A stretch of DNA of 63,005 nt from an uncultured Pseudomonadales bacterium (GTDB lineage: Bacteria > Patescibacteriota > Microgenomatia > UBA1400 > PJMF01). Both the position numbers and the translations under genes were made by a program. The notes under the pieces were generated by a model. The model was given only the letters and a program-made list of their open reading frames with translations. It made no database searches and had not been told where the DNA came from. The stretch's first letter is position 1; every line of letters starts with the position of its first letter. Shown in pieces: positions 10,941 through 30,905 of this stretch. The stretch is from positions 1-63,005 of the forward strand of contig CAZDWQ010000001.1 in assembly GCA_964509285.1 (NCBI GenBank), in the 5' to 3' direction.

Positions 10941-10948
10941 AGTTATGT

Positions 10949-10965
10949 GCGCGCCTGCGGCGCGC
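10949..10965 (-). promoter_or_regulatory. All-GC 7-bp stem, 3-nt loop hairpin in the tag-uppS spacer
   Basis: gcgcgcc-tgc-ggcgcgc is a perfect inverted repeat. It ends 8 nt upstream of the uppS ATG and has no trailing T-run. Confidence 0.5.
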
Positions 10966-10974
10966 CCTCTCAAT

Positions 10975-13148: not shown

Positions 13149-13154
13149 ATTCTG

Positions 13155-14162: not shown

Positions 14163-15042
14163 AAGCCCTATTGTACCTTAATCTTGAATTTTCCCAATCG
14201 TTTTGAGTACAAAACCTTTCTACTTTTTTTAAATCCTTGTCATATACTAATATCCAACCAGAACCAGATTTTACGCCTCCTGCACCAGTAATCTTGGCGT
14301 AAGCACCTATTTTTTTAATTTTACTGAGCATTTTTTTTGCTCTCTCACCAACAACATGCAGTTTTTCTAGTTCTTCCTGATTTTGATCAAGTAAGTTACC
14401 CTCAAACGTACCAGAAACCAATTGTTTCTGAATCTGTGCACTTATTTTGCCAATTTTTTTAACCACTTTACTATTTTTGGGATCATTTTTTAGTAACTCT
14501 GCAACTTTTGTTACCATCTCACCAGTGGTTTCTGTTGCAAAACCAGAATTTACTAATAAAAACTCGTATTCTTTGGCAAATTTGAGTTTTCTTTTTTGAA
14601 ACGCACCTGTTTTTAGATTTTTTCTAAAAGAATGAGTACCTCCATATACAACTGCACAAGGATCGATCCCGCTTGGATTTTTGTGAACAAATACTTCTGA
14701 TTTAAAAACTAACTCATACATTTCATCTTGTGAAATTTTAATTGAAAAATATTCGACCAAAGCTTGTATTACAGCATGAGCAAAAGCAGCAGATGAACCC
14801 AATCCAGATTTTTGAGGAATCTGCGAATCAACTTGAATAGCTAATTTGCTTGTATCAACTATAAAATTCTTTGAGAACAAATCAAAAATATGTTGTTCAT
14901 AGCCCGTCCGTTTAATTGTCTTTTCTGATTCAGATAGTGAAACTGAAAGCTCTTTGTCCAAAAATGAGACAAGCGCTGGTTCTCCATACACTACACTGTG
15001 TTCACCGGTAATAATACACTTGCCGTTACTTGTATGTTTCAT
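14143..15042 (-). CDS. mvk: Mevalonate kinase
   Basis: GKCIITGEHSVVYGEPAL and SGLGSSAA (GHMP motif) are present. Length is 299 aa. Confidence 0.85.
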   Translation of the reverse strand: MKHTSNGKCIITGEHSVVYGEPALVSFLDKELSVSLSESEKTIKRTGYEQHIFDLFSKNFIVDTSKLAIQVDSQIPQKSGLGSSAAFAHAVIQALVEYFSIKISQDEMYELVFKSEVFVHKNPSGIDPCAVVYGGTHSFRKNLKTGAFQKRKLKFAKEYEFLLVNSGFATETTGEMVTKVAELLKNDPKNSKVVKKIGKISAQIQKQLVSGTFEGNLLDQNQEELEKLHVVGERAKKMLSKIKKIGAYAKITGAGGVKSGSGWILVYDKDLKKVERFCTQNDWENSRLRYNRAFGEKYD

Positions 15043-15093
15043 AAAAAACGTCTCAATTTGAGATATATTAATAGTCGCAAAAACTCACAAAAA

Positions 15094-15411
15094 TCATGCA
15101 AGTTTGCACGCTTTTAATCCGTAGGGAATTATCGACTTTTCATCAGGAATAGCACTCTTTCGTAGCTCTAATCTAACTTTTTCTCCAACTGTAAACAAAG
15201 TTTTTGCTTCTCCCATGATTTCTATCTTTTGTTTTTGACCATCTTTGAGTACCGGATCTAACTCAACAATTAAAAAACAATATGGTAAAAAATCTTCTAA
15301 CTCTTTTGAAGTAACGTCCAAACGAGTCGAAAATAAAATAGTCCCTGTTTTTCCAAGCAGTTTATGCCAATTTTTGCTGTTTCGATGATACTGTGCGGGT
15401 TGGATATTCAT
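15094..15411 (-). CDS. DUF35-type OB-fold protein (thiolase/HMG-CoA synthase complex partner), no Zn-ribbon
   Basis: The OB-fold pattern GTILFSTRL...PYCFLIVELD...IEIMGEAKTLFTVGEKVRLEL is present. It lies immediately downstream of the thiolase, as in archaeal operons. Confidence 0.6.
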   Translation of the reverse strand: MNIQPAQYHRNSKNWHKLLGKTGTILFSTRLDVTSKELEDFLPYCFLIVELDPVLKDGQKQKIEIMGEAKTLFTVGEKVRLELRKSAIPDEKSIIPYGLKACKLA

Positions 15412-15414
15412 AGG

Positions 15415-16656
15415 TTAGTCCTTTTGCCCAAAATCTTTACTTAAAATATGAACTATCGCAGTTGCACCACTCCCACCAACATTATGTGCGAGTGCATATA
15501 CTTTTTGATTTTTTATGTGTCTGGTTGGCAACTGATCTCGTAATACCTTTGACTGTAATAACTCAGCTAAAAAAGCAACTTGTTTAACTCCAGTTGCTCC
15601 CACTGGATGTCCGCAGGCCTTTAGTCCACCAGAAGGATTTATCACGACTTCTCCACCAAAAGTGGTTCTTCCTTCTGCAATAGCTTTTCCGCCCTCACCT
15701 TTTTTGAAAAAACCTAAGTCTTCACTTGCTAAAATTTCTGCTATGGTAAAACAATCATGCACTTCAACAAAAGAGATATCTTTTGGAGTAATTTTTGCTT
15801 GAACATATGCTTGCTCTGCGGCAAATCTAGTTGCTTGTAACTCTGTTAAACTTTCACGATCAGCTAAACTCAAACTATCTTGGGCATGACCTACCGCCTC
15901 AATCACTGGTTTGTGCTTATATTTTTTGATATCTTTGGTAGTTAAAATTACGGCACTTGCACCATCTGAGACTGGGGAACAGTCAAATAAACGTAGTGGA
16001 TCAGCAATCACCGTACTAGTACTAATAACTGCCACAGGAATTTCCTTTTGAAACTGAGCTTTGGGATTCATTACAGCATGTTTATGATTCTTGCTCGCAA
16101 CTCTTGCGAGTTGCTCGCGCGTTGTTCCAAAAGTTTGCATATGCGCTTGCGCCAGCAATGCATACAAAGCAGGAAAAGTGCTTCCATATTCTTTTTGGTA
16201 CTCACTCGCACCTGATAAAGTTTTCGTTGCATCTTGTGCTAAAGCGTCGGTCATTTTTTCTGCACCTACAACCAGCACTGTCTTATATTTTCCTGAATGC
16301 AGTGCCAACTCTGCTAGTTCTAATGCCATTGCCCCGGAAGCACAGGCTGCTTCAACTCGGAACGCTGGTGGATTATGAGGCAACATTTGTGAAACTAACG
16401 CGTTGAGATGTAGTTGGTTGGTGAACTGGCCTCCGGCCATGTTCGCCACAAAAACCGCATCAATTTCATCCGCAACAAATTTTGACTCAGCAATTTTTGT
16501 TCCGTACTCATGCTCAATATGTTTTTTATCAAATTTTGACCCAAACACAGAATTAAGCGCACCAAAAACTGCTTCTTCAAACAAGCTCTCTAAAGATCTG
16601 TCCCACAACTCTCCAAACTGCGTAATATAGTTACCGATAATTCTAATTTTTTTCAT
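15415..16656 (-). CDS. Archaeal-type acetoacetyl-CoA thiolase
   Basis: Catalytic Cys context VEAACASGAMAL; C-terminal GHPVGATG and NVGGSGA. Confidence 0.8.
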   Translation of the reverse strand: MKKIRIIGNYITQFGELWDRSLESLFEEAVFGALNSVFGSKFDKKHIEHEYGTKIAESKFVADEIDAVFVANMAGGQFTNQLHLNALVSQMLPHNPPAFRVEAACASGAMALELAELALHSGKYKTVLVVGAEKMTDALAQDATKTLSGASEYQKEYGSTFPALYALLAQAHMQTFGTTREQLARVASKNHKHAVMNPKAQFQKEIPVAVISTSTVIADPLRLFDCSPVSDGASAVILTTKDIKKYKHKPVIEAVGHAQDSLSLADRESLTELQATRFAAEQAYVQAKITPKDISFVEVHDCFTIAEILASEDLGFFKKGEGGKAIAEGRTTFGGEVVINPSGGLKACGHPVGATGVKQVAFLAELLQSKVLRDQLPTRHIKNQKVYALAHNVGGSGATAIVHILSKDFGQKD

Positions 16657-16672
16657 AATAACTGTCTTGTAC

Positions 16673-17821
16673 CTAATGGGCGCTGTTTACTCGATACTCT
16701 TCGTAAGAAATAGGCTCTAACTTTTGTAACTGGTCAGACAAAAGTTCAGCCGTTACAACAAAACTTTGGTTGCCCGACTGATCCGTCCATTTTTTTCTAG
16801 CTTGTTCGAGATATTTTGTCGTTTCAAAAATAAATACATCACTTCCAGAGCCAGAACCGTAAGAAACCACTAAAACTTTTTCGCCAGCTTGTGCAATGTC
16901 TAAAGTCGCAGCCAAACCCAACATACTTGAACCTGCGTACGTATTCCCAATTTGAGTCACTAGTAAACTTGCTTCAATTTGCTGACTTGAAAATCCAAGC
17001 TCACGGGCAACCTGAGTTGGAAACTTTGCATTTGGAGTATGAAACACGCAGAATCCGAAGTCTTTAGGTTTTAAATTAGCTTCCTTCATTACCAATTCTG
17101 CAGCCATTTTTATATGAGTGAAATATCCAGGATCAGCGGTAAATCTCCCCGCATGTTCTGGATATGCTTGGTAAGGCCTCCTCCAAAAATCTGGCGTGTC
17201 CGTTGCCACAGAAGTTGTTGCTAGTAGTCGTGCGAGTAGTTTTTGTCCACCATTTTTCTCCGCACCCAAAATATACGCTGCTCCACCTGCTCCAGCCGTA
17301 TACTCTAAGACATCTCCTGGTTTTGCTTGAGCAGTATCTGTTCCTATTGCCATCGCGTACTGGCTAAAACCCGAGCAAACATATAGCAACGCTATCTGCA
17401 TTGCCTGTGTTCCTGCCTTACAAGCAAATTGAAGGTCTGCTAAAGCGAGTGGTGAGGTAACGCCATCGTCAGAACTGTCAGAAGCAATTCCCAAAGCTTG
17501 AGCCACAACTGTTCCTGATGGCTTGACTGCATAAGGATGGCTTTCACTTCCAATAAAAAGCGCTCCAACTTCCTTCCCGATTTTCTTAGAATCAACTGAC
17601 AACTCCAACCGCTCCAAAGCCTGAAACCCGGCTGCAGTAGACAAAGTAATTGTGTCTTCATCAATTCCTGGAACTGTTTTTGATTCAACCCCAAGTGCTT
17701 TAAAAATCTTTTGTTCTGTTTTTCCCTGAGCTGCAGCAACTTGAGATCCCAAAATTTTGAGCCGAGGAATTCGTGCCCCATATGAAACAATACCAACTGA
17801 TGTTTTTTTATTTAAAATCAT
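16673..17821 (-). CDS. Hydroxymethylglutaryl-CoA synthase, short archaeal-type
   Basis: VGIVSYGARIPRLKI start, catalytic Cys region DLQFACKAGTQAM, length 382 aa. It is adjacent to the thiolase and DUF35 genes. Confidence 0.75.
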   Translation of the reverse strand: MILNKKTSVGIVSYGARIPRLKILGSQVAAAQGKTEQKIFKALGVESKTVPGIDEDTITLSTAAGFQALERLELSVDSKKIGKEVGALFIGSESHPYAVKPSGTVVAQALGIASDSSDDGVTSPLALADLQFACKAGTQAMQIALLYVCSGFSQYAMAIGTDTAQAKPGDVLEYTAGAGGAAYILGAEKNGGQKLLARLLATTSVATDTPDFWRRPYQAYPEHAGRFTADPGYFTHIKMAAELVMKEANLKPKDFGFCVFHTPNAKFPTQVARELGFSSQQIEASLLVTQIGNTYAGSSMLGLAATLDIAQAGEKVLVVSYGSGSGSDVFIFETTKYLEQARKKWTDQSGNQSFVVTAELLSDQLQKLEPISYEEYRVNSAH

Positions 17822-17860
17822 TACAAAAAACTTGCGGGAGCTAAAACTAGAGCCAGCAAT

Positions 17861-19135
17861 TCACTTTCTAACTTTTTTTGATCTTCCAAGCTTGGCGTGA
17901 GCACTTGCAAGTGTATTTGTTGTTAACGCAGCAAGCCCAGAAATCTCTCCAGCTAACGCTGCCAAACCTGCCACAACCGCTAGATCTTGAGCTTTTGGCA
18001 ATTCGCTACCGCTTTTTTCACCATTTAGCATGGTTGAACGTGCTTGACTTTGCTTTGGCAACCAAGTTCCCCCACCAACACTTCCAACGCTCACATTCGG
18101 CAAAGTAAGCGCTATATATAAAGTATCTTGTTCTTTGTCATCTGGCTTATCTCCACCCATTAACTCAAAATGAACACTTGCTTCACTCCCTGCAACAACA
18201 TGGGCAACATCTTGACCAGTTGCTAAGTAAAAAGCACCTAAAGCATTAGCAACGTGCATATTTTGAGCAAACGACCCAGCCACATTACTGCCAATCACGT
18301 TTTTAACTAAATGAATCTTCACTAAATCTTTGGCATTTACTTTTAATAACTCTTCTATTTTTTTAACACTAACTTTAGTCTCAACCGTTACAAAGTATCC
18401 TCGCCCCAATAAACGGTTGATCATAGAATCTTTTTTATCAGTACATACGTTTCCAGAAACAGTCAACAAAGAAACCCAAATATGATCTGGCAACTGTCTT
18501 TTAAACTTATCCCATGCATATGACAAGGCAATCGTAACCATGTTCATTCCCATGGCTTCGTCTGTATCAAAGACAAAACGAAAATACAGTAATTTATCTC
18601 TCATAAATGTTTCATAAGATAAAAACTTCAAGTGACTGCTCGTTTCTTCACAAAACCCAGCAAATAACTTACTGTTTTTAGAAAAATACTCACTAAATGT
18701 AACGGCATCATCAATAGAACTACACTCAAAAACCACAGATCTACTCATGCCTACTTTTTTGACAACAACTTTTGTTGTTCCCTCATTTAAAATTTTTAAA
18801 CCTCTATGAATTGAGGCCACCAAAGCTCCTTCCGTTGTTGCTAATGGAATCAGAAATGATTGTTGCTGTTTTTTACTAATTTTTTTATCACTTGAAATAA
18901 AACAAGTTTGAACGTTCACCGGGCCCGCAATCCCAACAGGAACCTCCACAGAGCCAATTAAGTTTTCACAATTTTTTTGCCCCACATCTTCTAAAGGAAA
19001 ACTTGTAGTAAATAGATCACTCAAATCAGATTTGTTTTTATTAGAAACAGCACAAACTAGATCTTGCCTCGTCTTTAGTTTTTCTGCTTCAGAAGATTTT
19101 TCATCACGAATAAAGAAAGATTGTTGTTTTGTCAC
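17861..19135 (-). CDS. HMG-CoA reductase, class I-like motifs
   Basis: TTEGALVASIHRG, DEAMGMNMV and VGSVGGGT match class I signatures (EGxLVAS, DAMGMN, GTVGGGT). GTG start at 19135. Confidence 0.85.
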   Translation of the reverse strand: MTKQQSFFIRDEKSSEAEKLKTRQDLVCAVSNKNKSDLSDLFTTSFPLEDVGQKNCENLIGSVEVPVGIAGPVNVQTCFISSDKKISKKQQQSFLIPLATTEGALVASIHRGLKILNEGTTKVVVKKVGMSRSVVFECSSIDDAVTFSEYFSKNSKLFAGFCEETSSHLKFLSYETFMRDKLLYFRFVFDTDEAMGMNMVTIALSYAWDKFKRQLPDHIWVSLLTVSGNVCTDKKDSMINRLLGRGYFVTVETKVSVKKIEELLKVNAKDLVKIHLVKNVIGSNVAGSFAQNMHVANALGAFYLATGQDVAHVVAGSEASVHFELMGGDKPDDKEQDTLYIALTLPNVSVGSVGGGTWLPKQSQARSTMLNGEKSGSELPKAQDLAVVAGLAALAGEISGLAALTTNTLASAHAKLGRSKKVRK

Positions 19136-19177
19136 AACACATTAGTCGCAAAAAAACAAAAAAATCATGCAAGACTA

Positions 19178-19849
19178 CTATTTTTTATTTACAATTTGTT
19201 TGAAAGCGTCAAAAAGAAGTGAGTTCTGGAGCATAAAAATAGTCCATGGAGCAATTTTCAGTTCTTTTTCACCAATTTTTAAAGAAACTGGCTTTGTATT
19301 TTTTTCTAACTCTTCTTGCGTGAGTAGTAGAGACTGTTCAGGAGAAATATATTCAAGAGTGAGTGCCTTTGCAATTAACTCTTCAAAACCAACCCAACAA
19401 TATTCGCTTGCTTCTTCAGGATTTGGTTGCACTTTTCCTTCATAAGAACCAGTATAAACTTGATCCAGTTCATGCTCTCCATACATTTCATTTCCATATG
19501 CTTTATAGGCAAATTTATAGAGAGGACTCAAATTAAACCCATCAGTAATACCCAACTCAACTTTTAATCTTCTCAGGGCGCAGTCAAAATATGTTTCTGT
19601 TGGCCAAACATTACCACAAACGGTATTTGCCCACCAGTCAGCACCAACAATTTTACTTTTACTGCGTTTTTGAAATAAAACTTGTCCTTTTGAGTTGAAT
19701 AGCCATACCGAGATAGCTAAATGCAATTTTGATGGATATTTATGAGCATTAAATTTGTCATCTCTGCCAATAATAGTTCCATCCAAGTCACAAAGTGAGA
19801 CTTCGTCTTTTTCAATCAATAGTTGCCGCACTGTTTTATCTTCAGTCAT
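19178..19849 (-). CDS. idi: Isopentenyl-diphosphate delta-isomerase, type 1 (Nudix fold)
   Basis: KLHLAISVWLFNSKGQVLFQKRSKSKIVGADWWANTVCGNVWP...RRLKVELGI and GEHELDQVY align by eye to E. coli Idi (LHLAFSSWLFN...NSVCGHP...ENEVCPVF). Confidence 0.8.
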   Translation of the reverse strand: MTEDKTVRQLLIEKDEVSLCDLDGTIIGRDDKFNAHKYPSKLHLAISVWLFNSKGQVLFQKRSKSKIVGADWWANTVCGNVWPTETYFDCALRRLKVELGITDGFNLSPLYKFAYKAYGNEMYGEHELDQVYTGSYEGKVQPNPEEASEYCWVGFEELIAKALTLEYISPEQSLLLTQEELEKNTKPVSLKIGEKELKIAPWTIFMLQNSLLFDAFKQIVNKK

Positions 19850-20194: not shown

Positions 20195-20389
20195 TTATTT
20201 CACAAACTCAACAACTAAGGCAGAAAAAATTGCTAAAAAAACGAGAACTACCAATGTGTTCTCCCCGATAAACGAAGTCAACGGATCAAATGCTTTTGGA
20301 ATAATACGTGAGCTGTACAACTTTTGTTGTTGCTGAGCTTCATCTTGTAGCTTTTTTAAAAAGTCTTCATTCATCTGTATATCCCACAC
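20195..20389 (-). CDS. Small single-pass membrane protein; anti-sigma candidate by position only
   Basis: 64 aa with a C-terminal TM (LVVLVFLAIFSALVV). It starts 4 nt after the sigma-factor stop. No recognisable anti-sigma motif. Confidence 0.35.
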   Translation of the reverse strand: MWDIQMNEDFLKKLQDEAQQQQKLYSSRIIPKAFDPLTSFIGENTLVVLVFLAIFSALVVEFVK

Positions 20390-20392: not shown

Positions 20393-20914
20393 TTACGCAA
20401 CTGACCACAGTTCTTTAAACTCTTTTCTTGCTCTAAATAAATCTGACTCTATTGATTTTTCACTTTTCTTAAACTCTTGAGCAATTGCTATTACTTTTTT
20501 ACCGTCTGCATACTTGAGTAACAATAATTCTTTGTAGTAACTCTTCATTTTTGCTAATACTTGTGTAACTTTTTGTGAAACATCATCACTATCAGAAATG
20601 TGATTCAGCGGAAGTAAATCTGATAATGGAATTGTCTGCAGTGCCTTTTTGGCATATTTTTTTCTAAAATAATCCGCAATTTCATGCCGTGCAATAGAGT
20701 TCATCCACGTCCAAATGCTAGATTTTCCCAAAAAAAGTGGTAAATGCTTTAAACAGTTCAGAAAAGTCTGCTGCACAATTTCTTCGGCATCTTTCTTATT
20801 TGATATTTTCACTCCGACAACATTTAAAAGCCGAGTGTAGTACAAATCAAACCATACTTTAACTGCACGTTCATCGCCTGTTTTAAGTTGAGCTAGTAAT
20901 TGCTTTTCTTCCAT
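20393..20914 (-). CDS. ECF-type RNA polymerase sigma-70 family factor
   Basis: Region 2-like DAEEIVQQTFLNCLKHLPLF and region 4 HTH LLLLKYADGKKVIAIAQEFKKSEKSIESDLFRARKEFKE. The ATG at 20914 (MEEKQ) is preferred, with TACAAT 12 nt upstream. Confidence 0.8.
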   Translation of the reverse strand: MEEKQLLAQLKTGDERAVKVWFDLYYTRLLNVVGVKISNKKDAEEIVQQTFLNCLKHLPLFLGKSSIWTWMNSIARHEIADYFRKKYAKKALQTIPLSDLLPLNHISDSDDVSQKVTQVLAKMKSYYKELLLLKYADGKKVIAIAQEFKKSEKSIESDLFRARKEFKELWSVA

Positions 20915-21008
20915 ACTATTTATTGTATTGTACAACAAAATTTACACCTGCCAGGCAAACTTAGATACTTTCCATCAAGATAAGCCTACTATATAATAGG
21001 GTTACATT

Positions 21009-21380
21009 ATGTTTTTTGGATTAATACCTACCGTCTATGCCCAACAATTGAGTCCTTGTGGAGCAGGCAACGGAGGAATTAACTTAGGAAATTGCCTCAA
21101 GCTTTCAGATAGTACTCAAATAAGCGCTGTGTACGACAATCCTGCATTTTTAGTAAATTTGCTCATTAGCAACCTATTTGTTGTTGCTGGAGTTATCTTT
21201 TTCATTTTTCTCATTGTTGCCGGTTTTAAATTCATAATTGGTGGTCAAAAAGGTGCAGAAGATGCAAAAAACATTATCACAACCGCCATGTCTGGTTTCA
21301 TCATTATGTTTGCTGCATACTGGGTCATTCAGATTGTTGTCTTATTAACAGGAATAACTATTGCAGGAGTAAGTCAATAA
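21009..21380 (+). CDS. T4SS pilin-like protein (VirB2/TrbC-type two-helix), paralog 1
   Basis: Signal-like N-terminus, then FVVAGVIFFIFLIVAGFKFIIGGQKGAEDAKNIITTAMSGFIIMFAAYW. Confidence 0.7.
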   Translation: MFFGLIPTVYAQQLSPCGAGNGGINLGNCLKLSDSTQISAVYDNPAFLVNLLISNLFVVAGVIFFIFLIVAGFKFIIGGQKGAEDAKNIITTAMSGFIIMFAAYWVIQIVVLLTGITIAGVSQ

Positions 21381-21382
21381 AT

Positions 21383-21766
21383 ATGTCAATATTTACTATC
21401 TCGAAAGTATTTGCACAAACTCCAGAAGAAATGATAGGAGAAATTGAAATCCCGAAAGGTGTTGATCTTATTAACACACAAGCTGGTGGTATAGGTATCA
21501 TTTTATTCGTCTCTAAAATAATTCGTTTTATCATCATTCTAGGGGGCATTTGGACATTAATAAATATTATTTTTGCTGCATTTTTATATTTTAACGGTGG
21601 AGGAAAATCAGATACGCATAGTAAGGTAAGTAGTAAATTTACCATGAGCGTCATCGGATTGATGCTCATCATCATTTCCTATACTGCGGCAGCACTGATT
21701 GGATTACTCTTCTATGGAGACGCAACCTTTATCTTAACACCAAAAATCACTCCTATTGGAGGATAG
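21383..21766 (+). CDS. T4SS pilin-like protein, paralog 2
   Basis: IWTLINIIFAAFLYFNGGGKSDTHSKVSSKFTMSVIGLMLIIISY. It starts 2 nt after paralog 1. Confidence 0.7.
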   Translation: MSIFTISKVFAQTPEEMIGEIEIPKGVDLINTQAGGIGIILFVSKIIRFIIILGGIWTLINIIFAAFLYFNGGGKSDTHSKVSSKFTMSVIGLMLIIISYTAAALIGLLFYGDATFILTPKITPIGG

Positions 21767-21773
21767 GAAACGT

Positions 21774-22349
21774 ATGAAAGTATTACTTGTGAAAGTACTG
21801 CGTAATCTAATTTTAAGCTTATTTACTACCTTGCTTTTTGCTAGCGTACTTTTCTCTTCACAACTTATTCAGCCAAAACAAGTTTCTGCTGCAACATGTA
21901 GTTATATAGGACAATGTATTGATAACAAAAGATGCATTTGCGTAGTTTTGGGAGGAGAATGCTATAGCAATCAACCAGAACTCATTTTGAGTGACCAACC
22001 ATGTGGATCAGCAATCATTGGCGGTGTCGAGGCTCCAATTGCTATAACAAATATCAATATGGCATCAGGTCAAGAAATTGGACTTATCTTTTTTATCTCT
22101 AGAACTCTCAACTTTGCCAATATTGTAGCCGGAATTTTAGTAATGATTAACTTTGTAATTGCGGGATTTACTTATATTACCAGTGCTGGAAATGTGGCAA
22201 ACATGACTAAAATCAATGAAAAACTAATGTGGAGTGTTCTTGGCATCTTAATGATTGTTGGTTCATACACTTTAGCCGCAATTTTTGGTCTTGTTTTTTA
22301 TGGCGATCCAACATTTATTATTACCCCTGTATTAACAGGAGCAATTTAA
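21774..22349 (+). CDS. T4SS pilin-like protein, paralog 3 (longer Cys-containing N-terminal region)
   Basis: GGAGGA lies 10 nt upstream of the ATG at 21774. C-terminus VMINFVIAGFTYITSAGNVANMTKINEKLMWSVLGILMIVGSY. Confidence 0.7.
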   Translation: MKVLLVKVLRNLILSLFTTLLFASVLFSSQLIQPKQVSAATCSYIGQCIDNKRCICVVLGGECYSNQPELILSDQPCGSAIIGGVEAPIAITNINMASGQEIGLIFFISRTLNFANIVAGILVMINFVIAGFTYITSAGNVANMTKINEKLMWSVLGILMIVGSYTLAAIFGLVFYGDPTFIITPVLTGAI

Positions 22350-22385
22350 TGAGTATTTGGTATATAATAGAATAAAGAAAATAAT

Positions 22386-22757
22386 ATGATCTTACCAACA
22401 CTGATAGCACAACTTGGCAGTTTTGAATCATTTTCACCACTCACAGACGGTGCAAAAGAAAATCCAGGCGAAAATATAGAAACACTCATTTCTAACGTTT
22501 TTGGTTTTCTGACTATTGTTGGTGCAATTTTCTTTATTGTATCTTTTTTAATCGCAGCAATGGAGTGGATTACTTCCGGAGGTGATGCTGGCAAATTAAC
22601 TAACTCGAGAAATAAAATGATGCAGGGAATCTTGGGTTTAATTATTTTGGTTGCAGCATATGGAATTATCGGGCTTATTGGAAGCTTAATTGGTATTAAA
22701 TTACTTGAACCAGCACTATTGCTTGAAAGTATTACTCCAGGACAAGCCACTCCATGA
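22386..22757 (+). CDS. T4SS pilin-like protein, paralog 4
   Basis: FFIVSFLIAAMEWITSGGDAGKLTNSRNKMMQGILGLIILVAAY. Confidence 0.75.
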   Translation: MILPTLIAQLGSFESFSPLTDGAKENPGENIETLISNVFGFLTIVGAIFFIVSFLIAAMEWITSGGDAGKLTNSRNKMMQGILGLIILVAAYGIIGLIGSLIGIKLLEPALLLESITPGQATP

Positions 22758-23176
22758 AAACACTAACAAAAAAAAATTCAGCAGCAATATTAACAATTAG
22801 CTCTTTTGTAGCAGCAACACTGCCTTCTTACGCCGCCATTACTAACCCAGTGACCGGAGGTCTGGGAAATGATGTAGAAAAAGCAGCCTCAGGAGAAACC
22901 TTTGTTTACTACTTTACAACCCTTTGGAACTCATTCGTCGTCATTGGTGCAATCGCAGTTCTCATCATGTTCCTCTGGGGATCACTAGAATGGATTGCTG
23001 CTGGTGGTGACACAGGTAAGATTGAAAAAGCAAGAAATAGAATTACGCAATCTATCCTGGGTTTGCTGATCTTAGTGAGTGCTTTCGTAATTATCGGATT
23101 TGTAAGCCAATTATTCTTTGGTGAGGAATTTTCAATACTCAACTTAACATTTACACAAGTCGGAGGAGAAGAATAA
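22754..23176 (+). CDS. T4SS pilin-like protein, paralog 5
   Basis: ATGA overlap with paralog 4. LIMFLWGSLEWIAAGGDTGKIEKARNRITQSILGLLILVSAF. Confidence 0.75.
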   Translation: MKTLTKKNSAAILTISSFVAATLPSYAAITNPVTGGLGNDVEKAASGETFVYYFTTLWNSFVVIGAIAVLIMFLWGSLEWIAAGGDTGKIEKARNRITQSILGLLILVSAFVIIGFVSQLFFGEEFSILNLTFTQVGGEE

Positions 23177-23679
23177 TGAAACAACTTTTACTCGCGCTCT
23201 TTGTAAGCTTTTCAATTTTTGTCGGAGGCATTATTGCACTTTTGCCCGCAAAAACGACTTATGCACAAGAAACAATTGAGCTTAATTTTGGTGATGTTGC
23301 CAAAGATAATAATGTGATTGGAACTGAAAACTATGAATCAGACGATGGTAAAGCTGGTTTTGGAATACTCATTGGACAAATAATTGATATTGTTTTTACT
23401 ATTGCGCCAATCATCGTATTTATCATGTTTCTCTGGGGCAGCATTGAATGGATGACCTCGGGTGGTGATAAAACCAAAATTGAAAAGGCAAGAAGCAGAA
23501 TTACTCAGTCAATTATTGGAATGTTCGTCCTTACAACAGTAATAGCAATTTTCATAGAACTGCAAAAAGCTCTGAATTTTGAGGTATTTGATTTTGCTGC
23601 TGGAACAATCTCAAACCCTCCCAATAATCCAGAAAATCCGGGTAATCCGAGTATCCCACCAAAAAAATCACCGCTTTAA
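23176..23679 (+). CDS. T4SS pilin-like protein, paralog 6 (Pro/Asn-rich C-terminal tail)
   Basis: TAATG overlap with paralog 5. FIMFLWGSIEWMTSGGDKTKIEKARSRITQSIIGMFVLTTV. Confidence 0.75.
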   Translation: MKQLLLALFVSFSIFVGGIIALLPAKTTYAQETIELNFGDVAKDNNVIGTENYESDDGKAGFGILIGQIIDIVFTIAPIIVFIMFLWGSIEWMTSGGDKTKIEKARSRITQSIIGMFVLTTVIAIFIELQKALNFEVFDFAAGTISNPPNNPENPGNPSIPPKKSPL

Positions 23680-23695
23680 AAAAAGAAATAGAAAC

Positions 23696-23725
23696 TTGAC
23701 GTTTTGTCCCGGACACAGGTATAAT
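23696..23725 (+). promoter_or_regulatory. Sigma-70-type promoter for pilin paralog 7 (TTGACG, 18 nt, TATAAT)
   Basis: -35 ttgacg at 23696-23701 and -10 tataat at 23720-23725, followed by AAGGAA before the ATG at 23774. Confidence 0.6.
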
Positions 23726-23773
23726 TAGTCATAAGTATTCAGTAATTAACTGAAAGTAAAAAAAGGAACACAT

Positions 23774-24139
23774 ATGAGAAATAAACTCAACGGTTTAGCG
23801 CTGACAGTAGGCGCATTTATAACATCAGCTCCTGTAGTATTTGCAGCAACTCCTGTAGAACCAACCAGTTTCTATTTCGATGATATTGGTGTATTGATTA
23901 ATAAAATCCTTAATTTTGTTATGGTGCTTGGTGCGTTACTAGTTTTTATGTATCTTATTTGGGGTGGCATTGAATGGATTACTTCGGGTGGTGATAAAAC
24001 CAAAACAGAAGCTGCTCGTGGAAAAATTACTGCTGCAGTTATAGGTTTAATTGTTCTTGCTGCATCATGGGCTATCCTTGGATTGGTCCTCAACTTCTTG
24101 GATGCAGGATCATTCTCAGATTTAATCGAAACCCTGTAA
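23774..24139 (+). CDS. T4SS pilin-like protein, paralog 7; candidate major subunit
   Basis: Signal peptide ending VVFAA. VFMYLIWGGIEWITSGGDKTKTEAARGKITAAVIGLIVLAASW. It has its own consensus promoter and its own terminator. Confidence 0.75.
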   Translation: MRNKLNGLALTVGAFITSAPVVFAATPVEPTSFYFDDIGVLINKILNFVMVLGALLVFMYLIWGGIEWITSGGDKTKTEAARGKITAAVIGLIVLAASWAILGLVLNFLDAGSFSDLIETL

Positions 24140-24160
24140 TTCTTTGCAGAACTATAGTTA

Positions 24161-24196
24161 AAAAGCCCCTCTTTATGAAGGGCTTTTTAGTTTTTA
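24161..24196 (+). terminator. Rho-independent terminator after pilin paralog 7
   Basis: aaaagccc...gggctttt stem followed by a T-rich tail (tttttagttttt). Confidence 0.7.
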
Positions 24197-24205
24197 ATAA
24201 TTTGA

Positions 24206-24214
24206 TGCTATAAT
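24206..24214 (+). promoter_or_regulatory. Extended -10 promoter (TGcTATAAT) 11 nt upstream of the paralog 8 ATG
   Basis: tgctataat at 24206-24214; ATG at 24226; no Shine-Dalgarno sequence in between. Confidence 0.5.
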
Positions 24215-24225
24215 TATCTACACAG

Positions 24226-24639
24226 ATGATCAGAAAAAATAAACTATCAACTTTCAAAATAGTACTGACTATTTTTGTTGCGTATTTATATTCCGCCTCA
24301 TCAGCATTTGCCCAAACCGTGAGTTGGAGTGGCGTCTGCGTTGGTGGAGACGATCATGATGTTGCAACCATTCAAGGTCTTGAATGTTTAATTGCAAACG
24401 TATTTACTGTTATTATTACTCTTATTGGGTTATCTGCCTTTGTCATACTCATTGTTGGTTCGGTTCGCTGGCTTCTCTCTGGAGGAAACTCAACTCACTT
24501 AGATAAAGCAAAAAATACTATGACTTATGCGGTTATTGGTATCGTGGTAGCATTAAGTGCATTTATCGTTCTAAACTTGATTGCAGGATTCACTGGGATT
24601 AACACCATCAAAACATTTAAAATTCCTACTTCAAACTAA
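24226..24639 (+). CDS. T4SS pilin-like protein, paralog 8
   Basis: Signal peptide ending SAFAQ. FVILIVGSVRWLLSGGNSTHLDKAKNTMTYAVIGIVVALSAF. Confidence 0.7.
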   Translation: MIRKNKLSTFKIVLTIFVAYLYSASSAFAQTVSWSGVCVGGDDHDVATIQGLECLIANVFTVIITLIGLSAFVILIVGSVRWLLSGGNSTHLDKAKNTMTYAVIGIVVALSAFIVLNLIAGFTGINTIKTFKIPTSN

Positions 24640-24683: not shown

Positions 24684-27600
24684 GTGCGCAAGATACTATT
24701 TAAACTGCTATTCATACAGATTTTGTTTTTTTTTGTTATTGTAATCCAAATCATTGACCCAACTGTTGTCTTTGCAGCATGTGGCGCAGGCCAGATAGAT
24801 ATGCTTGAATATATGGGTCCTGAAAACGCTACTAGTTTTGAGCTTAGGTATTGTGGACCAAATGGAGAAGGTAGTGAACAAATTTTAGTTGAACGCGGAA
24901 TAGTCTACACAGAAGAAGGTGAAAAAAATGGTTTTTTCATTAATAAAGGTGGAAACTACGAGGCCTACTTCTTTGATGATTCATTCATATATTTTTACGA
25001 AGACATCTCATGGGATGAACAATGTAATGGTCAAGAAGCCTTTTATAGAGTGTTTACTCCTGGTGAAGGCGTTGGAGGAAAAATTCCTCGATGTATATCT
25101 CCTGGCGAATCTTTTTCTTCAAATCAACAGATAAAAGCATACTATGAAGCTGATTATCTACAATATACAAAAACAAACGCTCCTCCAACAGGAAATATTT
25201 GTTCAGATTCTTTTCCAGCTAATGTTGTTACTGCAACAGTTGTGTATGCAAATGAAACTCAAGGAGGTCCAGTTATTCCTGGCACAAACACAACAGATAC
25301 CATCGCTATGACAAATGTAAGTGGTGCTGGTGTTGGAGAAATAAAATACTATACAAAAGGCTATGGTCTCACAGGGTTTCAAGCATCAAATTCTTCTGGA
25401 ATTTATTTTGAAAGCCTATTTTATAAAGATGGTCTGAGTACTTCAGAGCCAGTCCTTTCCTGCTCTAGTCAAGATGGAACTTATGATATGAGTATTTACC
25501 CAGACTATGAAGTTGATGAAACAAAATTCTACTTATCTCCTATCAGAAATGTAATTAATCAAGGCTCTTTACAAAGAACAGTCGAAAAATTAAGAAAAGA
25601 ATTAGCAATGCAAGGGTATCAAGCATATTGTGCTACAGAAGGTGTAAAAATTGAACCAGAATATAATACAAAAGAAAAAATAGAGACATACCTTGAACAA
25701 TATAATATCCCAAAAATCCTAGAAATGGATGCTATTGAAATACTCAATATGACAAACGCACAGTATCCCCTTTGGCGTGATGTAAGTAATAAGCAGTTTT
25801 TATTAGCTTCACTTGAAGAATATTTTGGTTTTCGCGATGTCTATATTGGTAGTCCATCCGATGCTGTTCTAACAAGTTCACCTATAAATTCACTACTCTC
25901 TGAACCGCAACTCTGTGTTCAAGGTTGGAGAAACTTGGTAGCCCAACAACTAGCTTGTGAAAGACTAAAAAATCCAGGAGAATGCGAACTCTTAACAAGA
26001 AAAATTCCTAAATTGGCATTTTCGTCAGATCTCTCCGAGAGTTCTGGACCAGAATACACAGTGAGCACACTTCTTGATGAATTAGCTGAATATGAACCAA
26101 ACTATCGAGACGGTACTGCTGTGAGTGGTTGTAAAAAATTAACAACTCAAGATAGGGCGGCTAATGAAGATCTATTACAAGGATTGATGAACACCCCAAC
26201 ATACTTTGATCGCGCATATAGATATGGTTTCATTGTTGCAGTTATACATGCAAAATCCCCAGGAACCGAAAGCGGTAATGTAGCAACAAAAATTTTCAAC
26301 TTCTTCACAAAAACAACTCGAAATCTTGTTCCAGATGATGAAGTTTTAGTGGCTGCTTTCAAACTACCAGACATTGCAACAAATAAAGGAGGAGGCGATG
26401 ATACCGGCTCACAATTTTGGTCTGATCCTCTGGATTTAACGCGAAAATTACTATTCACGAATGAACAAAATATCACTCATGAAGATGTTGATAGACCAAA
26501 TAAACGACAGAATACTCTAGATCAAGCTATTGCAGCCGCAGTTCAAGGACCAGAAAGTAAGATTTATTGTTATGAAGGGGCCTTTCCATATGGAATTGGC
26601 ACAAAATCTTGTCAAAATGAACTTACCAAAGCATTAACTGATATTATAAATGGTAATGTCGAGGGTTGTGGCGAGGCTGAGGTTGTACAAGTTATTAAAG
26701 ACTTGGCTGGATTAGATAATCCAGCAGAAAAATATGGGAAGGTTTTTAATAACGATAATGGCCAACAAGTAATGCTCAATCTCTTTTTGAATGATTTAAC
26801 CCACCCGCCTTTGGGTGTTAACGGACAAACAAATCCGCAAATTGCTAAAACTGATGATCCTGCAGAAAAGCTCAAGTCTCTTTTTACAATCTCTGAAGAT
26901 ACCTGGCCACCAATAGTAGATTCAACCACTGTTGACTTCTATATTGTATATCCGATTGGTTTTGAATTAAACGCAGTAGAAACAGCAATGAAAAGTGCAT
27001 TTTTTTCTAAAGCCCAACTCGCCGCCCTTGAAGCTGATAATAATATCGACAATTTTGAAATGACAGATCACGAAATTGGACTTGCTGCTGGATCAGTTGG
27101 TTTTGATTATATTGACAAAGAAAAAACCGCAAATGGTGAGTGTGGCACTGAAATTACAGCTTCTGGCGCCGTTGTCAACAAGCCATGTGTTGAAAATGTT
27201 TCTATTAGTGTCAATCAGGAACATACTGAAATTGGTGTAATGGGAGCAAAACTTGGGTATTGGATGAGAAAAATTCAGTTGCAATTAAACGCGCGTGCGT
27301 CTGATGCCTGGGCATACTTTGATTCTTGTAAAACGACAGAAGAGTTTTTACTCGGTAAGTGTGAAGGTGGAGGAATTGTTGCCGATGGCGGTGGAGGCGG
27401 AGGTGGGAACGGTGGACCAAATCCTGGGAATGGGCCTGGACTATCCTGTGAAGATCTCAGAGCGCTGACTGTAAACCTTCCAACAATGAGCGAACTTGAA
27501 AATATGGTTTGTCAAATTGCAAACGGTGATTCTAATGATGCTCAATTAGTCTGGGGTATGTTACAGGTTGATGGAAGTCCATTTTTGAGAACTATCCGCT

Positions 27601-28040
27601 CTGGAGCATCAAGCATGAGCTGTGGAGATATTCTAATAAATAGCTGTGGCGCCTCACAAATCGTTGGCGTTTTAATTCCACAATGTATTGATAAAGATGC
27701 TTGTCCACAAGCAGCATATATCGCTGACAACACCTCTGACCCTTGGGTACAAGAGGCTCGTAATAATCCTGATGTAGCCTGTGATATTGAAACTCAACTT
27801 GATTTCATCCTAAGAAAAAGAAAATCAGAAAAATCGTATCTTATTGGGCAATATGAAGCTGCACATGGCGTCTCTCCATCAACGCAACAACTATATTATA
27901 TGATGGCTGCTAGAAATTATGGACTAAGTTCAGATATTTTCACTAAACCAGCTTGCCAAGGAGCACCTGCAGTACAAGGTTGTGGTGGAGCTAATTATTG
28001 TGAATGTGTCATGGATACATTCCAATTCAGTTGCAATTAA
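24684..28040 (+). CDS. 1118-aa exported protein of unknown function, possible lipoprotein, with a poly-Gly linker and Cys-rich C-terminal domain
   Basis: GTG start. N-terminal hydrophobic segment ending VVFAAC (lipobox-like). GGGIVADGGGGGGGNGGPNPGNGPG encoded at 27364-27440. Many Cys in the last 200 aa. No family recognised. Confidence 0.55.
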   Translation: MRKILFKLLFIQILFFFVIVIQIIDPTVVFAACGAGQIDMLEYMGPENATSFELRYCGPNGEGSEQILVERGIVYTEEGEKNGFFINKGGNYEAYFFDDSFIYFYEDISWDEQCNGQEAFYRVFTPGEGVGGKIPRCISPGESFSSNQQIKAYYEADYLQYTKTNAPPTGNICSDSFPANVVTATVVYANETQGGPVIPGTNTTDTIAMTNVSGAGVGEIKYYTKGYGLTGFQASNSSGIYFESLFYKDGLSTSEPVLSCSSQDGTYDMSIYPDYEVDETKFYLSPIRNVINQGSLQRTVEKLRKELAMQGYQAYCATEGVKIEPEYNTKEKIETYLEQYNIPKILEMDAIEILNMTNAQYPLWRDVSNKQFLLASLEEYFGFRDVYIGSPSDAVLTSSPINSLLSEPQLCVQGWRNLVAQQLACERLKNPGECELLTRKIPKLAFSSDLSESSGPEYTVSTLLDELAEYEPNYRDGTAVSGCKKLTTQDRAANEDLLQGLMNTPTYFDRAYRYGFIVAVIHAKSPGTESGNVATKIFNFFTKTTRNLVPDDEVLVAAFKLPDIATNKGGGDDTGSQFWSDPLDLTRKLLFTNEQNITHEDVDRPNKRQNTLDQAIAAAVQGPESKIYCYEGAFPYGIGTKSCQNELTKALTDIINGNVEGCGEAEVVQVIKDLAGLDNPAEKYGKVFNNDNGQQVMLNLFLNDLTHPPLGVNGQTNPQIAKTDDPAEKLKSLFTISEDTWPPIVDSTTVDFYIVYPIGFELNAVETAMKSAFFSKAQLAALEADNNIDNFEMTDHEIGLAAGSVGFDYIDKEKTANGECGTEITASGAVVNKPCVENVSISVNQEHTEIGVMGAKLGYWMRKIQLQLNARASDAWAYFDSCKTTEEFLLGKCEGGGIVADGGGGGGGNGGPNPGNGPGLSCEDLRALTVNLPTMSELENMVCQIANGDSNDAQLVWGMLQVDGSPFLRTIRSGASSMSCGDILINSCGASQIVGVLIPQCIDKDACPQAAYIADNTSDPWVQEARNNPDVACDIETQLDFILRKRKSEKSYLIGQYEAAHGVSPSTQQLYYMMAARNYGLSSDIFTKPACQGAPAVQGCGGANYCECVMDTFQFSCN

Positions 28041-29289: not shown

Positions 29290-29300
29290 AGACTTTGAAT

Positions 29301-30905
29301 ATGGCAAAAAAAACCCTTGCAGTGTTGCTTGTTTTATTTTCATTATTGGTAATCACTACTAAGATTTCTTATGCACAAGGAAACGTCTGGAGTCCTTCTG
29401 AAGACGCAAAAGGTTTTGAGAGTTACCGTGCTGCAATTGATGATGATGGTTGTATGACCCCTTCTCTAGAATGTCTAGTCCATCAAGTCTTTAGATTTAC
29501 TTCTCTTGAATTTGTGAACTCAACCCTATACACAGAATTTAAACCAACTATTACTAGTGCCGATCCAGAAGGTGGCCAAAAAGTCGCAAAAGGTAGTGGC
29601 GTTCTGAATGGAGTCGGAACCCTTATCGGCCAAATGTACTCTCACCCAGCTGCAAATACCAGCGTTTATATTGCAGATTTAATGGAATCAGCACACATAA
29701 CTCCTAAGGTATATGCGCAAGGTCTTGGTTTTGCATCTTTAAATCCAATCTTGGAGCTTTGGAAAGCATTTAGAAACATTGCCTATATGTTCTTTGTGAT
29801 CATGTTCATTATTATTGGTTTTATGATTATGTTTAGACAGCGTGTTGGTGGCCAAGCAGCAATCACTGCACAACAAGCAATCCCAAGCGTGATTGTTAGT
29901 TTAATCCTCGTTACCTTTTCATATGCTATTGCCGGTTTTATGATCGATTTAATGTATGTGATTATGTTCTTGATTATTGGAATTTTTGGTCAAACATTGC
30001 CAACCGGTAGTGAAAATTTAATTGACATGACCATTTTGCAAGTTGCCGGAGCAATGTTTAAGAGTGCGGCAAACCCAGCGGCAAATGCAGATTTAGTCAG
30101 CAACCTCTTTGGAAGTTTGATTGTTAACGAAGGGATTAACTCGTTTCTCTCTATCGCAGGTGGATTAACTTTAAGTATAGTCTTAGCTATCGCAATCTTG
30201 ATTGGAACTATCAAGCTGTTTTTCGAACTACTAAAATCATATGCGAGTGTCGTGTTAAGTGTCGTTACTTCTCCACTTGTTTTAATGATGGGAGCAATTC
30301 CAGGTAAGAACCCTGTTGTGCCTTGGTTAAAAGATTTGATTGGCAACTTATTACCATTCCCAGTCGTGTTATTAGTCTTAGTCATTTTCTATCAATTTTC
30401 TAACTTAACTGGATCTGGCAATGAGGGTGGATTTATTCCACCATTTCTTATTGCTCGAGGTCAATCAGGTGCTATTGCAAGTTTAATGGGACTTGCTCTC
30501 ATTTTGGCACTACCGGAAATTGTTAAAGACGCTAAGAAAGGACTCGTGAAAGAAGGATTTGGCAGTATGGTATTTAAAGCCGCCACAGAATCTGCGAAAC
30601 AAGGTTGGAAGGGTGGCGAACTTATTCCTGGAACTGGTATTAAAACTCCAGGTGCAAGGCAAGTTATTGAAACCCCATTGTTTGGTACTAAAGAATCTAG
30701 AAAAGATGCTGAAGGACGTCAAGATTCTGCAAGATTCTGGAAACGTGGACTTGCCGGTGGAACATATGAAAGAAGTCTCGAATACTGGAGAAACAGACAA
30801 AAAAGAAAAACTGCTCGAAAACCAATCGCCCCAACAACAACACCTTCTTCTGGTCCAACAAGTGGCGAAGCTCAAGGTGGAGCTCAAGGTGGCCAAAGAA
30901 ACTAG
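29301..30905 (+). CDS. VirB6/TrbL-like polytopic membrane protein
   Basis: Signal peptide, an extracytoplasmic segment of about 130 aa, at least 6 TM helices, and a basic disordered tail. The call rests on topology and context; no diagnostic motif. Confidence 0.55.
   Translation: MAKKTLAVLLVLFSLLVITTKISYAQGNVWSPSEDAKGFESYRAAIDDDGCMTPSLECLVHQVFRFTSLEFVNSTLYTEFKPTITSADPEGGQKVAKGSGVLNGVGTLIGQMYSHPAANTSVYIADLMESAHITPKVYAQGLGFASLNPILELWKAFRNIAYMFFVIMFIIIGFMIMFRQRVGGQAAITAQQAIPSVIVSLILVTFSYAIAGFMIDLMYVIMFLIIGIFGQTLPTGSENLIDMTILQVAGAMFKSAANPAANADLVSNLFGSLIVNEGINSFLSIAGGLTLSIVLAIAILIGTIKLFFELLKSYASVVLSVVTSPLVLMMGAIPGKNPVVPWLKDLIGNLLPFPVVLLVLVIFYQFSNLTGSGNEGGFIPPFLIARGQSGAIASLMGLALILALPEIVKDAKKGLVKEGFGSMVFKAATESAKQGWKGGELIPGTGIKTPGARQVIETPLFGTKESRKDAEGRQDSARFWKRGLAGGTYERSLEYWRNRQKRKTARKPIAPTTTPSSGPTSGEAQGGAQGGQRN

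Follow-up and report, generated by a model that had tools for sequence, protein, structure and literature searches.

A conserved tandem array of VirB2-like type IV secretion system pilin genes in Microgenomatia, with one paralog as the probable major subunit

The DNA analysed here, called the window, is the whole 63,005-nt stretch of contig CAZDWQ010000001.1 (assembly GCA_964509285.1), a chromosome fragment with 35–38% GC. Listing and translating its open reading frames (ORFs) revealed eight on the plus strand between 21009 and 24639, named P1 to P8. They are a tandem array of VirB2-like pilin genes of a type IV secretion system (T4SS) of Microgenomatia, which belong to the candidate phyla radiation (CPR), or Patescibacteria. 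In the comparisons below, W denotes the window and the numbers L001 to L088 denote related loci. The coordinates of all features are given in Table 1.

The eight pilin genes and their family

Hydropathy analysis showed two long hydrophobic helices with a short polar loop between them in all eight proteins. The N-termini are less uniform. The leaders of P1, P2, and P4 are hydrophobic, have 8–11 residues, end in A|Q, and are not full signal peptides. Longer N-termini for these three proteins were considered and rejected since an in-frame upstream start is absent. For P3, an upstream GGAGGA makes the ATG at 21774 a likelier start than the TTG at 21756. P3 is a paralog of P2 (38% identity), and many related arrays are without it. 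The loop consensus W-I-T-S-G-G-D is found in P4 to P7 and loosely in P8, and the loops of P1 to P3 are divergent. The genes are tightly packed, with gaps of 2 nt between P1 and P2 and 7 nt between P2 and P3, an ATGA overlap of P4 and P5 (22754–22757), and a TAATG overlap of P5 and P6 (23174–23178). Larger gaps of 36, 94, and 86 nt precede P4, P7, and P8, respectively.

Table 1. Positions of the pilin genes, their signals, and other features in the window
Feature	Position	Strand	Remarks
P1	21009-21380	+	123 aa; divergent pilin-domain protein, short leader MFFGLIPTVYA|Q, Cys pair in N-terminal tail
P2	21383-21766	+	127 aa; divergent pilin-domain protein, short leader; local hidden Markov model (HMM) match only
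P3	21774-22349	+	191 aa; pilin domain and Cys-rich N-terminal extension of ~80 aa
P4	22386-22757	+	123 aa; PF18895 pilin, short leader MILPTLIA|Q
P5	22754-23176	+	140 aa; PF18895 pilin; ATGA overlap with P4
P6	23176-23679	+	167 aa; PF18895 pilin, Pro-rich C-terminal tail; TAATG overlap with P5
P7	23774-24139	+	121 aa; signal peptide end VFA|A, helices 38-70 and 75-108
P8	24226-24639	+	137 aa; PF18895 pilin, Cys pair in N-terminal tail
P1 -10 box TATAAT	20992-20997	+	ends 11 nt before ATG
P4 candidate internal promoter TATAAT	22363-22368	+	17 nt upstream of P4
P7 sigma-70-type promoter TTGACG, 18 nt, TATAAT	23696-23725	+	11/12, best match in region
P7 5' untranslated region (UTR) small hairpin TTCAG-TAATTAA-CTGAA	23738-23754	+	kept in close relatives
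P7 Shine-Dalgarno (SD) AAGGA	23763-23767	+	6 nt before ATG
P7 intrinsic terminator AAAAAGCCC...GGGCTTTTT then T-run	24160-24195	+	-15.5 kcal/mol, z = -2.65
P8 extended -10 TGcTATAAT	24206-24214	+	ends 11 nt before ATG
39-nt core, P6 arm	23441-23479	+	candidate gene-conversion tract
39-nt core, P7 arm	23967-24005	+	2/39 mismatches compared to P6 arm
468-aa large pilin-domain protein	7769-9175 (probable start 7907)	+	Cys-rich ectodomain (14 Cys), C-terminal pilin domain
336-aa protein	9175-10185	+	Cys-rich repeated ectodomain (24 Cys), C-terminal PF18895 pilin domain
64-aa protein	20195-20389	-	one C-terminal transmembrane (TM) segment; downstream of ECF sigma gene
Extracytoplasmic function (ECF)-type sigma factor	20393-20938	-	Pfam Sigma70_r2, Sigma70_r4_2, Sigma70_ECF; divergent from P1
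1118-aa secreted Cys-rich protein	24684-28040	+	30 Cys, poly-Gly stretch; after P8
Candidate VirB6, polytopic membrane protein	29295-30905	+	534-536 aa; syntenic with array in all context loci
PrgI (VirB3-like) protein	45564-46736	+	Pfam
TrsD / VirB4-N-terminal-like protein	46770-48014	+	profile match below cut-off
VirB4-type ATPase	48035-50176	+	adjoins dnaA (50360-51916)

Membership in the Pfam family PF18895 (T4SS_pilin; gathering cut-off 26.6 bits) is established. P4 (37.2 bits), P5 (35.4 bits), P6 (29.4 bits), P7 (46.3 bits), and P8 (36.0 bits) all scored above the cut-off, as did the 336-aa protein encoded upstream of the array (28.1 bits). P1 (16.5 bits), P3 (17.8 bits), and the 468-aa protein (25.8 bits) scored below it, and P2 gave no match, so that P1 to P3 are linked to the family only by a local HMM and by synteny. 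The homologues of P7 number in the hundreds; all of them carry PF18895, and the named ones are labelled Woesebacteria, Pacebacteria, or Patescibacteria. The locus is very probably a PF18895 pilin array of the Patescibacterial T4SS. An AlphaFold2 (AF2) model of P7 predicts a signal helix followed by a two-helix hairpin, with predicted local distance difference test (pLDDT) values above 90 in the hairpin.

A second family, NF045849 (Mbov_0395 pilin-like, from a Mycoplasma integrative and conjugative element, ICE; cut-off 40 bits), matched P7 at E = 2e-8 and 33.7 bits, which is under its cut-off. It also matched P4, P5, P8, and P3, again under the cut-off and at E values no better than that of P7. 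This similarity hints at PF18895-type pilins in monoderm systems of the MPF_FATA type. It bears on where these pilins came from, including the suggested co-option of CPR pilins from diderm T4SSs.

An initial annotation, made from the DNA alone, had described all eight proteins as T4SS-type pilins with a signal-like N-terminus, two TM helices, and a shared loop consensus. The pilin identity was borne out by PF18895 for P4 to P8 and the two-helix architecture for all eight; the signal-like N-terminus did not hold for P1, P2, and P4, which have short leaders only, and the loop consensus did not extend to P1 to P3. Its junction coordinates (the 2-nt gap and the ATGA and TAATG overlaps) match the sequence. 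It had counted ten pilin-domain sequences, which is explained by the array together with the two further pilin-domain proteins found with the local HMM at 7769–9175 and 9175–10185.

Conservation of the array and transcription signals of P7

Scanning with a single genome for each species gave at least 571 genomes in which P7 has a relative, and 80 loci were kept. Nearly all of the full-length loci among them contain 6–11 co-directional pilin genes, most often 7 (31 loci), 8 (20 loci), or 9 (12 loci). When the genes were classified against P1 to P8, a recurrent order of 1-2-(3)-4-5-6-7-(7')-8 was seen in about 80 species-level genomes. Positional orthologs share 42–83% identity, compared to 17–38% (mean 27%) between paralogs within the window. 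The contigs of both close and distant P7 orthologs share a larger module. It starts with minus-strand genes for a small TM protein and an ECF sigma factor, continues with seven or eight pilin genes, and ends with genes for a secreted protein of ~850–1170 aa and a polytopic membrane protein of ~550–600 aa, between which lies a single gene on the minus strand. In comparison to three relatives, dN/dS was 0.04–0.19 for all eight genes. All eight paralogs are under purifying selection. From these sequence comparisons, the array appears to be an old, fixed, multi-subunit set and not a family that has been expanding recently or varies rapidly.

At least four species encode P5 and P6 as a single fusion polypeptide, in which a linker replaces the signal peptide of P6; this argues that the two belong to one assembly. 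The fusion proteins have two pilin domains and four TM helices in 228–320 aa and are topologically consistent. They were seen in independently assembled loci (L006 at 9076–9891; also L011, L012, L020, and L046). In many relatives, a second or third P7-like copy, called P7', lies downstream of P7 (L007 at 10001–11494; L014, L016, L017, L021, L022, and others). Over the 180-nt pilin domain, the P7' copies have 54%–91% nucleotide identity to P7, apart from three outliers at 27–34% that are probably misaligned. These copies suggest repeated duplication or conversion of the P7 gene.

Promoters and terminators were assessed by conservation across species since a scan confined to the window showed no enrichment of them (12 promoters found compared to 18 ± 4.9 in shuffles). 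The evidence for the signals described here is, therefore, comparative. P7 is the only gene of the array with a full −35/−10 promoter, an SD site, and a terminator. Its promoter boxes, TTGACG at 23696–23701 and TATAAT at 23720–23725, agree with the consensus across orthologs, TTGAC[TG]-18-TATAAT. A promoter matching at least 10/12 positions was found for 59 of the 80 main P7 orthologs compared to at most ~20% in the other classes, and one matching at least 11/12 for 41 of the 80 compared to 0–2 genes per other class. SD-like sites precede 58% of P7-class genes and 3–25% of the genes in the other classes. A hairpin with a T-run follows 76 of 82 main P7 orthologs, compared to at most 15% in other classes. 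It is the structure of the terminator that is conserved because the stem sequences differ between species. The median gaps flanking P7 are ~85 nt on both sides, compared to 2–25 nt for the other classes. No other paralog is as conserved as P7, in which 35 columns are invariant among 35 orthologs down to 52% identity. A small hairpin in its 5' UTR keeps its TCAG/CTGA arms in L001, L003, L005, and L006 although the loop has changed, and may be an mRNA-stabilising 5' stem-loop.

Other parts of the array have signals of a different type. An exact TATAAT lies 5–14 nt before the start in 59 of 80 P1 orthologs (74%), and only 5% of these orthologs have an SD site; for P8, the corresponding values are 41% and 3%. 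Since the −10 boxes of P1 and P8 end so close to the ATG, leaderless or near-leaderless mRNAs are implied, and the pattern across orthologs implies a conserved leaderless translation of P1 and P8. The candidate internal promoter of P4 was found mainly in close relatives (W, L001, L003, L010, and L005). Judged by these promoter and terminator signals, the array probably consists of four units, P1–P3, P4–P6, P7, and P8, the last of which perhaps extends into the downstream genes.

The initial annotation had assigned a promoter and a terminator to P7 alone and proposed that P7 may be the major subunit. The full −35/−10 promoter and the terminator are indeed particular to P7, but P1 and P8 have conserved −10 boxes and P4 has a candidate one. 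The proposal itself gained strong support across orthologs from the promoter, the terminator, the SD site, the high conservation, and the lowest synonymous divergence (dS) of the eight genes. P7 is, on these sequence features, probably the major pilin subunit.

P6/P7 gene conversion and the neighbouring genes

The 39-nt core shared by P6 and P7 with two mismatches, first pointed out in the initial annotation as a possible product of gene conversion, lies where it was described. In a GENECONV-style permutation test with the eight window paralogs, P6 and P7 were found to share 20 consecutive polymorphic sites (global p = 0.0025), and no other pair of paralogs came near this. A 42-nt core of P6 in the window matches P7 of the window at 37/42 positions, compared to 30–34/42 for P6 orthologs, and the flanks of the core group strictly by ortholog. 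Single states follow the same pattern. This genome is the only one in which both P6 and P7 have the Ser codon TCG; both have the Thr in DK-T-K here and in the closest relative (L088) but nowhere else; and P6 of the window carries a P7-type Ile codon at a place where other P6 orthologs have other residues. In L005, P6 and P7 share an exact tract of 49 nt together with FGY/GGV substitutions. In L016 and L021, P7 is the same as the extra downstream copy over ~40 residues; the copies in L014, L017, and L022 have diverged. Taken together, the permutation, core/flank, and shared-state signatures support conversion of short tracts between P6 and P7. As far as these tracts go, conversion would homogenise the conserved TM1-loop core and not the variable N- and C-terminal tails. 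In F- and T-pilus structures, the N- and C-terminal tails of VirB2-type pilins are the exposed parts.

Further inferred from the core in the initial annotation was surface variation. The conversion idea stood up to the permutation test and to the tract in L005, but the variation did not. Neither diversifying selection (dN/dS was 0.04–0.19 in all eight genes) nor transfer of variable segments between copies was seen, every paralog has a 1:1 ortholog in ~80 species, and the tract is the most conserved part of the protein, the TM1-loop core.

The surroundings of the array are those of a Patescibacterial chromosome near the replication origin, with dnaA and dnaN directly after the gene for the VirB4-type ATPase. 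No relaxase was seen within the window. A putative VirB6-like fold is encoded 5 kb downstream of the array by the ORF at 29295–30905. The AF2 model of this protein has a pLDDT of 67, and R388 TrwI/VirB6 made up 7 of its 10 top Foldseek matches in the PDB (best E = 6.5e-3, probability 1.0), although the TM-scores were low (0.24/0.40). The protein gave no Pfam match, and the structural model makes it a suggestive VirB6 candidate. It may fill a gap noted for Microgenomatia, in which VirB6 was described as 'scarce' (PMC12102498).

A homolog of the divergent ECF sigma factor lies less than 400 nt from P1 in at least 47 of 67 related loci, and a homolog of the adjacent 64-aa TM protein was present in 45 of 67. 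The 64-aa protein looks anti-sigma-like, and together with the sigma factor it may make up a dedicated pair of regulators. No promoter motif of the ECF type was identified. On the other side of the array, at least 36 of 73 loci have a homolog of the 1118-aa secreted protein after P8, as do all close relatives; we consider this protein a candidate for a pilus-associated adhesin. The conservation counts for the ECF sigma factor and the 1118-aa protein come from single-sequence searches and are lower bounds. At E ≤ 1, Pfam gave nothing useful for the neighbours of 1118, 364, 536, 337, 330, 383, and 489 aa, and a scan of the whole window at the Rfam gathering thresholds found no family.

The two pilin-domain proteins encoded at 7769–9175 and 9175–10185 may be adhesin-bearing pilins. 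The 336-aa protein contains two near-identical repeats of ~60 aa (GGYCMNFNVGCSNGGTTITDASCVDILFN...), and similar large pilin-domain ORFs lie directly upstream of the array in some relatives (e.g., L050, L058, L067, and L069). A mevalonate-pathway cluster, also syntenic with the array across relatives, lies beside it on the minus strand at about 13000–19849 and contains genes for a thiolase (15415–16656), a protein like 3-hydroxy-3-methylglutaryl-coenzyme A (HMG-CoA) synthase (16673–17821), an HMG-CoA reductase (17861–19135), and a NUDIX protein (19178–19849); GHMP kinases are found upstream of this cluster in relatives. Two giant proteins were also noted. One of 1505 aa, encoded on the minus strand at 31128–35645 between the array and virB4, has no domain match. 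The other, of 1611 aa, is encoded on the plus strand at 39662–44497, upstream of the PrgI, TrsD, and VirB4 genes. It has a cluster of TM segments and an M23 peptidase domain and may be an analogue of a VirB1-like wall hydrolase.

Models for the array and comparison with known systems

Our preferred explanation, to which we give somewhat better than even weight, is that the paralogs are not alternative pilins and that they form a single T4SS filament or conduit from one major and several minor subunits. In the account that follows, we infer how strongly the genes are expressed, which subunits are major or minor, that a filament forms, how it is assembled, and that a sigma factor is in control. 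P7 would be made abundantly from a monocistronic unit that starts at a consensus sigma-70 promoter, has an SD site within a 5' UTR of ~41 nt, and closes with an intrinsic terminator. P1–P3, P4–P6, and P8 would be made at lower, fixed ratios from packed, overlapping, and probably translationally coupled units, of which those of P1 and P8, and perhaps that of P4, would start at leaderless-type −10 promoters. Control of the minor-pilin operon probably lies with the divergent ECF sigma/anti-sigma pair. Each subunit would be inserted as a helical hairpin with its basic loop toward the cytoplasm, after which the VirB4/TrsD ATPase would presumably extract it and polymerise it on a VirB6-like platform. 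P1 to P6 and P8 would be minor subunits with priming, tip, adaptor, or adhesin roles, and the two ectodomain-bearing proteins encoded at 7.8–10.2 kb are probably minor subunits as well. Several of the putative minor subunits have Cys-containing extracellular tails; in P3 the extension is ~80 aa, and in the 7.8–10.2-kb proteins it amounts to whole ectodomains. Occasional short conversion between P6 and P7, which are neighbours and the most similar pair, would homogenise their TM1-loop core. The initial annotation had proposed minor, tip, or alternative roles for the paralogs other than P7; a fixed minor set is favoured, but alternative use is disfavoured by the 1:1 orthologs. The fuller version of this model, a filament of major P7 with at least seven fixed and specialised minor VirB2-like pilins, ectodomain-bearing members, a secreted Cys-rich partner, and ECF control, is more tentative, and we would put it at a little under even.

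The following points weigh against the heteromeric model. A pilus has never been seen on any Patescibacterial T4SS in the literature, the array is 24 kb from virB4, and P1 to P3 are under the PF18895 cut-off. The dS of P7 is 0.59 compared to 1.0–2.7 for the other paralogs, about half and the pattern expected of a highly expressed gene, but dS is near saturation and the argument is thus only semi-quantitative. Identity within genomes exceeds identity between genomes by ~4% for P4–P5, P5–P6, and P6–P7 compared to about 1–2% for the other tested pairs, an excess that is only supportive of conversion because composition or mis-assigned orthologs could contribute to it. Similarity to classical pilins was also not significant. 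PF04956 (TrbC/VirB2; cut-off 27.9 bits) matched P5 at 16.6 bits (E = 0.009) and P7 at 14.7 bits (E = 0.035), both below the cut-off, though some P7 orthologs carry a precomputed match to it. Aligning the P7 orthologs by hhalign with four VirB2 sequences from Ti and related plasmids (the VirB2 query matched at 99%) gave a collinear alignment at E = 0.15 and probability 0.4. A Foldseek search of the PDB with the P7 model had a best E of 1.9, with CnrX and other helical hairpins at the top; the A. pernix conjugation pilus (8dfu) ranked ninth (TMt 0.64, E > 1), and the hairpin is too simple to discriminate. A profile of P7 orthologs matched no pilin among the PDB sequences and only CD20 at E ~1. 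The family claim is confined to PF18895 for these reasons, and homology of the array to VirB2/TrbC, as judged from the sequences, is plausible but unproven. HMM or structural likeness to VirB2/TrbC-type pilins had been named in the initial annotation as a test of its assignment; the PF18895 cut-off was passed by P4 to P8, but the likeness to the classical families was not significant.

The absence of an observed pilus and of a significant structural match to solved pili (by Foldseek or PDB profile) would both be explained if the paralogs were membrane-embedded parts of the T4SS, such as a lining of the channel or stalk or an assembly platform, and never formed an extracellular filament. The lack of pili in Gram-positive (MPF_FATA) systems and the related proteins in ICEs of wall-less Mycoplasma (NF045849) fit this explanation as well. 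However, the signal peptides and the Cys-containing extracellular tails and ectodomains point to exposure on the outside, one subunit appears from its signals to be built for the very high expression that a polymer would need, and the predicted VirB2-like hairpin topology fits a pilin. We consider purely membrane-embedded parts unlikely, with perhaps a chance of one in a handful. It is a good deal less probable that the paralogs serve as alternative or variant pilins whose copies are exchanged, or recombined through gene conversion, so that the pilus surface varies for host range or evasion, as was also suggested in PMC12102498. The low identity within the array (27%), the conversion signatures of P6/P7 and P7/P7', and the precedent of the Bartonella and Anaplasma virB2 paralogs (cited in PMC12102498) would agree with it. 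A set of interchangeable variants, however, is hard to reconcile with a 1:1 positional ortholog of every paralog across ~80 species, with a dN/dS of 0.04–0.19, or with conversion tracts that lie in the conserved TM1-loop core and not in the variable tails. The pilin genes are also co-directional and tightly packed, in part with stop codons that overlap the next start, which makes joint production probable; several species have P5 and P6 as a fusion; and in Southlakia the pilin series as a whole is essential (PMC10633639). Almost no weight can be given to a chance run of small hydrophobic ORFs or decaying duplicates without a joint function. The low Pfam scores of P1 to P3 would allow it, as would weak Pfam matches to holin and colicin V families, since two-TM proteins match promiscuously. 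Against it stand the synteny and order kept in ~80 species, the purifying selection on all eight genes, and the conserved regulatory signals. Pseudogenes or decaying duplicates were rejected because of the dN/dS values.

If the fuller version of the heteromeric model is correct, the array likely encodes the organelle by which epibionts engage their host cells. P7, as the probable major subunit, is a target for antibodies, cryo-electron tomography (cryo-ET), and CRISPR interference (CRISPRi), and the ectodomain-bearing minor pilins are candidates for host-binding screens. A hypothesis of variation is thereby replaced by a testable one of heteromeric assembly.

Arrays of this kind have been described before. 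A survey found 441 VirB2 arrays with 2–11 pilin genes in 383 Patescibacteria assemblies, mostly in Microgenomatia and Saccharimonadia and most abundantly in Microgenomatia; the genes of an array have a mutual identity of ~25% and at most 54%, and nearness to virB4 was defined as ±20 genes (Quinonero-Coronel et al. 2025, PMC12102498). In Southlakia epibionticum, the pilin series was shown to be essential (Wang et al. 2023, PMC10633639), and the Patescibacterial T4SS is essential for epibiotic growth (PMC10633639, PMC11665869). A 2025 review named these arrays as the one exception to the pilus-less Gram-positive T4SSs and called it an open question whether the Patescibacterial T4SS makes a pilus (PMC12857230). 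The premise of the initial annotation that multiple VirB2 genes are unusual is, therefore, outdated for this phylum (PMC12102498, PMC10633639). The window array does not differ in kind from the published ones. It likewise has tandem PF18895 genes with about 25% mutual identity (eight genes; mean 27%, maximum 38%) and a chromosomal monoderm-type T4SS, with PrgI, TrsD-like, and VirB4 genes near dnaA. What goes beyond PMC12102498 and PMC10633639 is the fixed gene order with 1:1 orthologs, the own promoter and terminator of one hyper-conserved paralog, the divergent ECF sigma factor, and the short P6/P7 conversion tracts. A described kind of array is extended here incrementally, by its operon substructure, a candidate for the major pilin, and the conversion tracts.

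Like the classical VirB2/TrbC/TraA pilins (PF04956), the array proteins combine a signal peptide, a two-helix hairpin, and a short basic loop, and they are associated with VirB4 and a candidate VirB6. In contrast to those systems with their VirB5 minor pilin, there are 8–10 paralogs instead of one, no VirB5, and a monoderm envelope. The best named relative beyond PF18895, the Mbov_0395 family (NF045849), is likewise a small two-TM protein of a monoderm MPF_FATA-type system; Mbov_0395 is a single gene in a mobile element, whereas a chromosomal array is found here. The virB2 families of Bartonella and Anaplasma also consist of several tandem and divergent virB2-like genes of one T4SS. The array differs from them in being ancient, positionally conserved, and under purifying selection, with no sign of alternative use.

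Type IV pili and the pseudopili of type II secretion systems (T2SSs) offer an analogy in working principle only, and one that we infer. In them, too, one abundant subunit has its own strong unit, and divergent minor subunits that share a membrane-anchoring core are conserved and co-transcribed (pilA compared to fimU-pilVWXE; GspG compared to GspH-K). The folds are unrelated, a VirB2-type hairpin in the array proteins and, in the other systems, that of type IV pilins, which have a class III signal peptide. If the fuller version of the heteromeric model is true, a monoderm would have arrived independently, on a VirB2 scaffold, at an architecture of major and minor pilins that until now has been known from type IV pili and T2SS pseudopili only.

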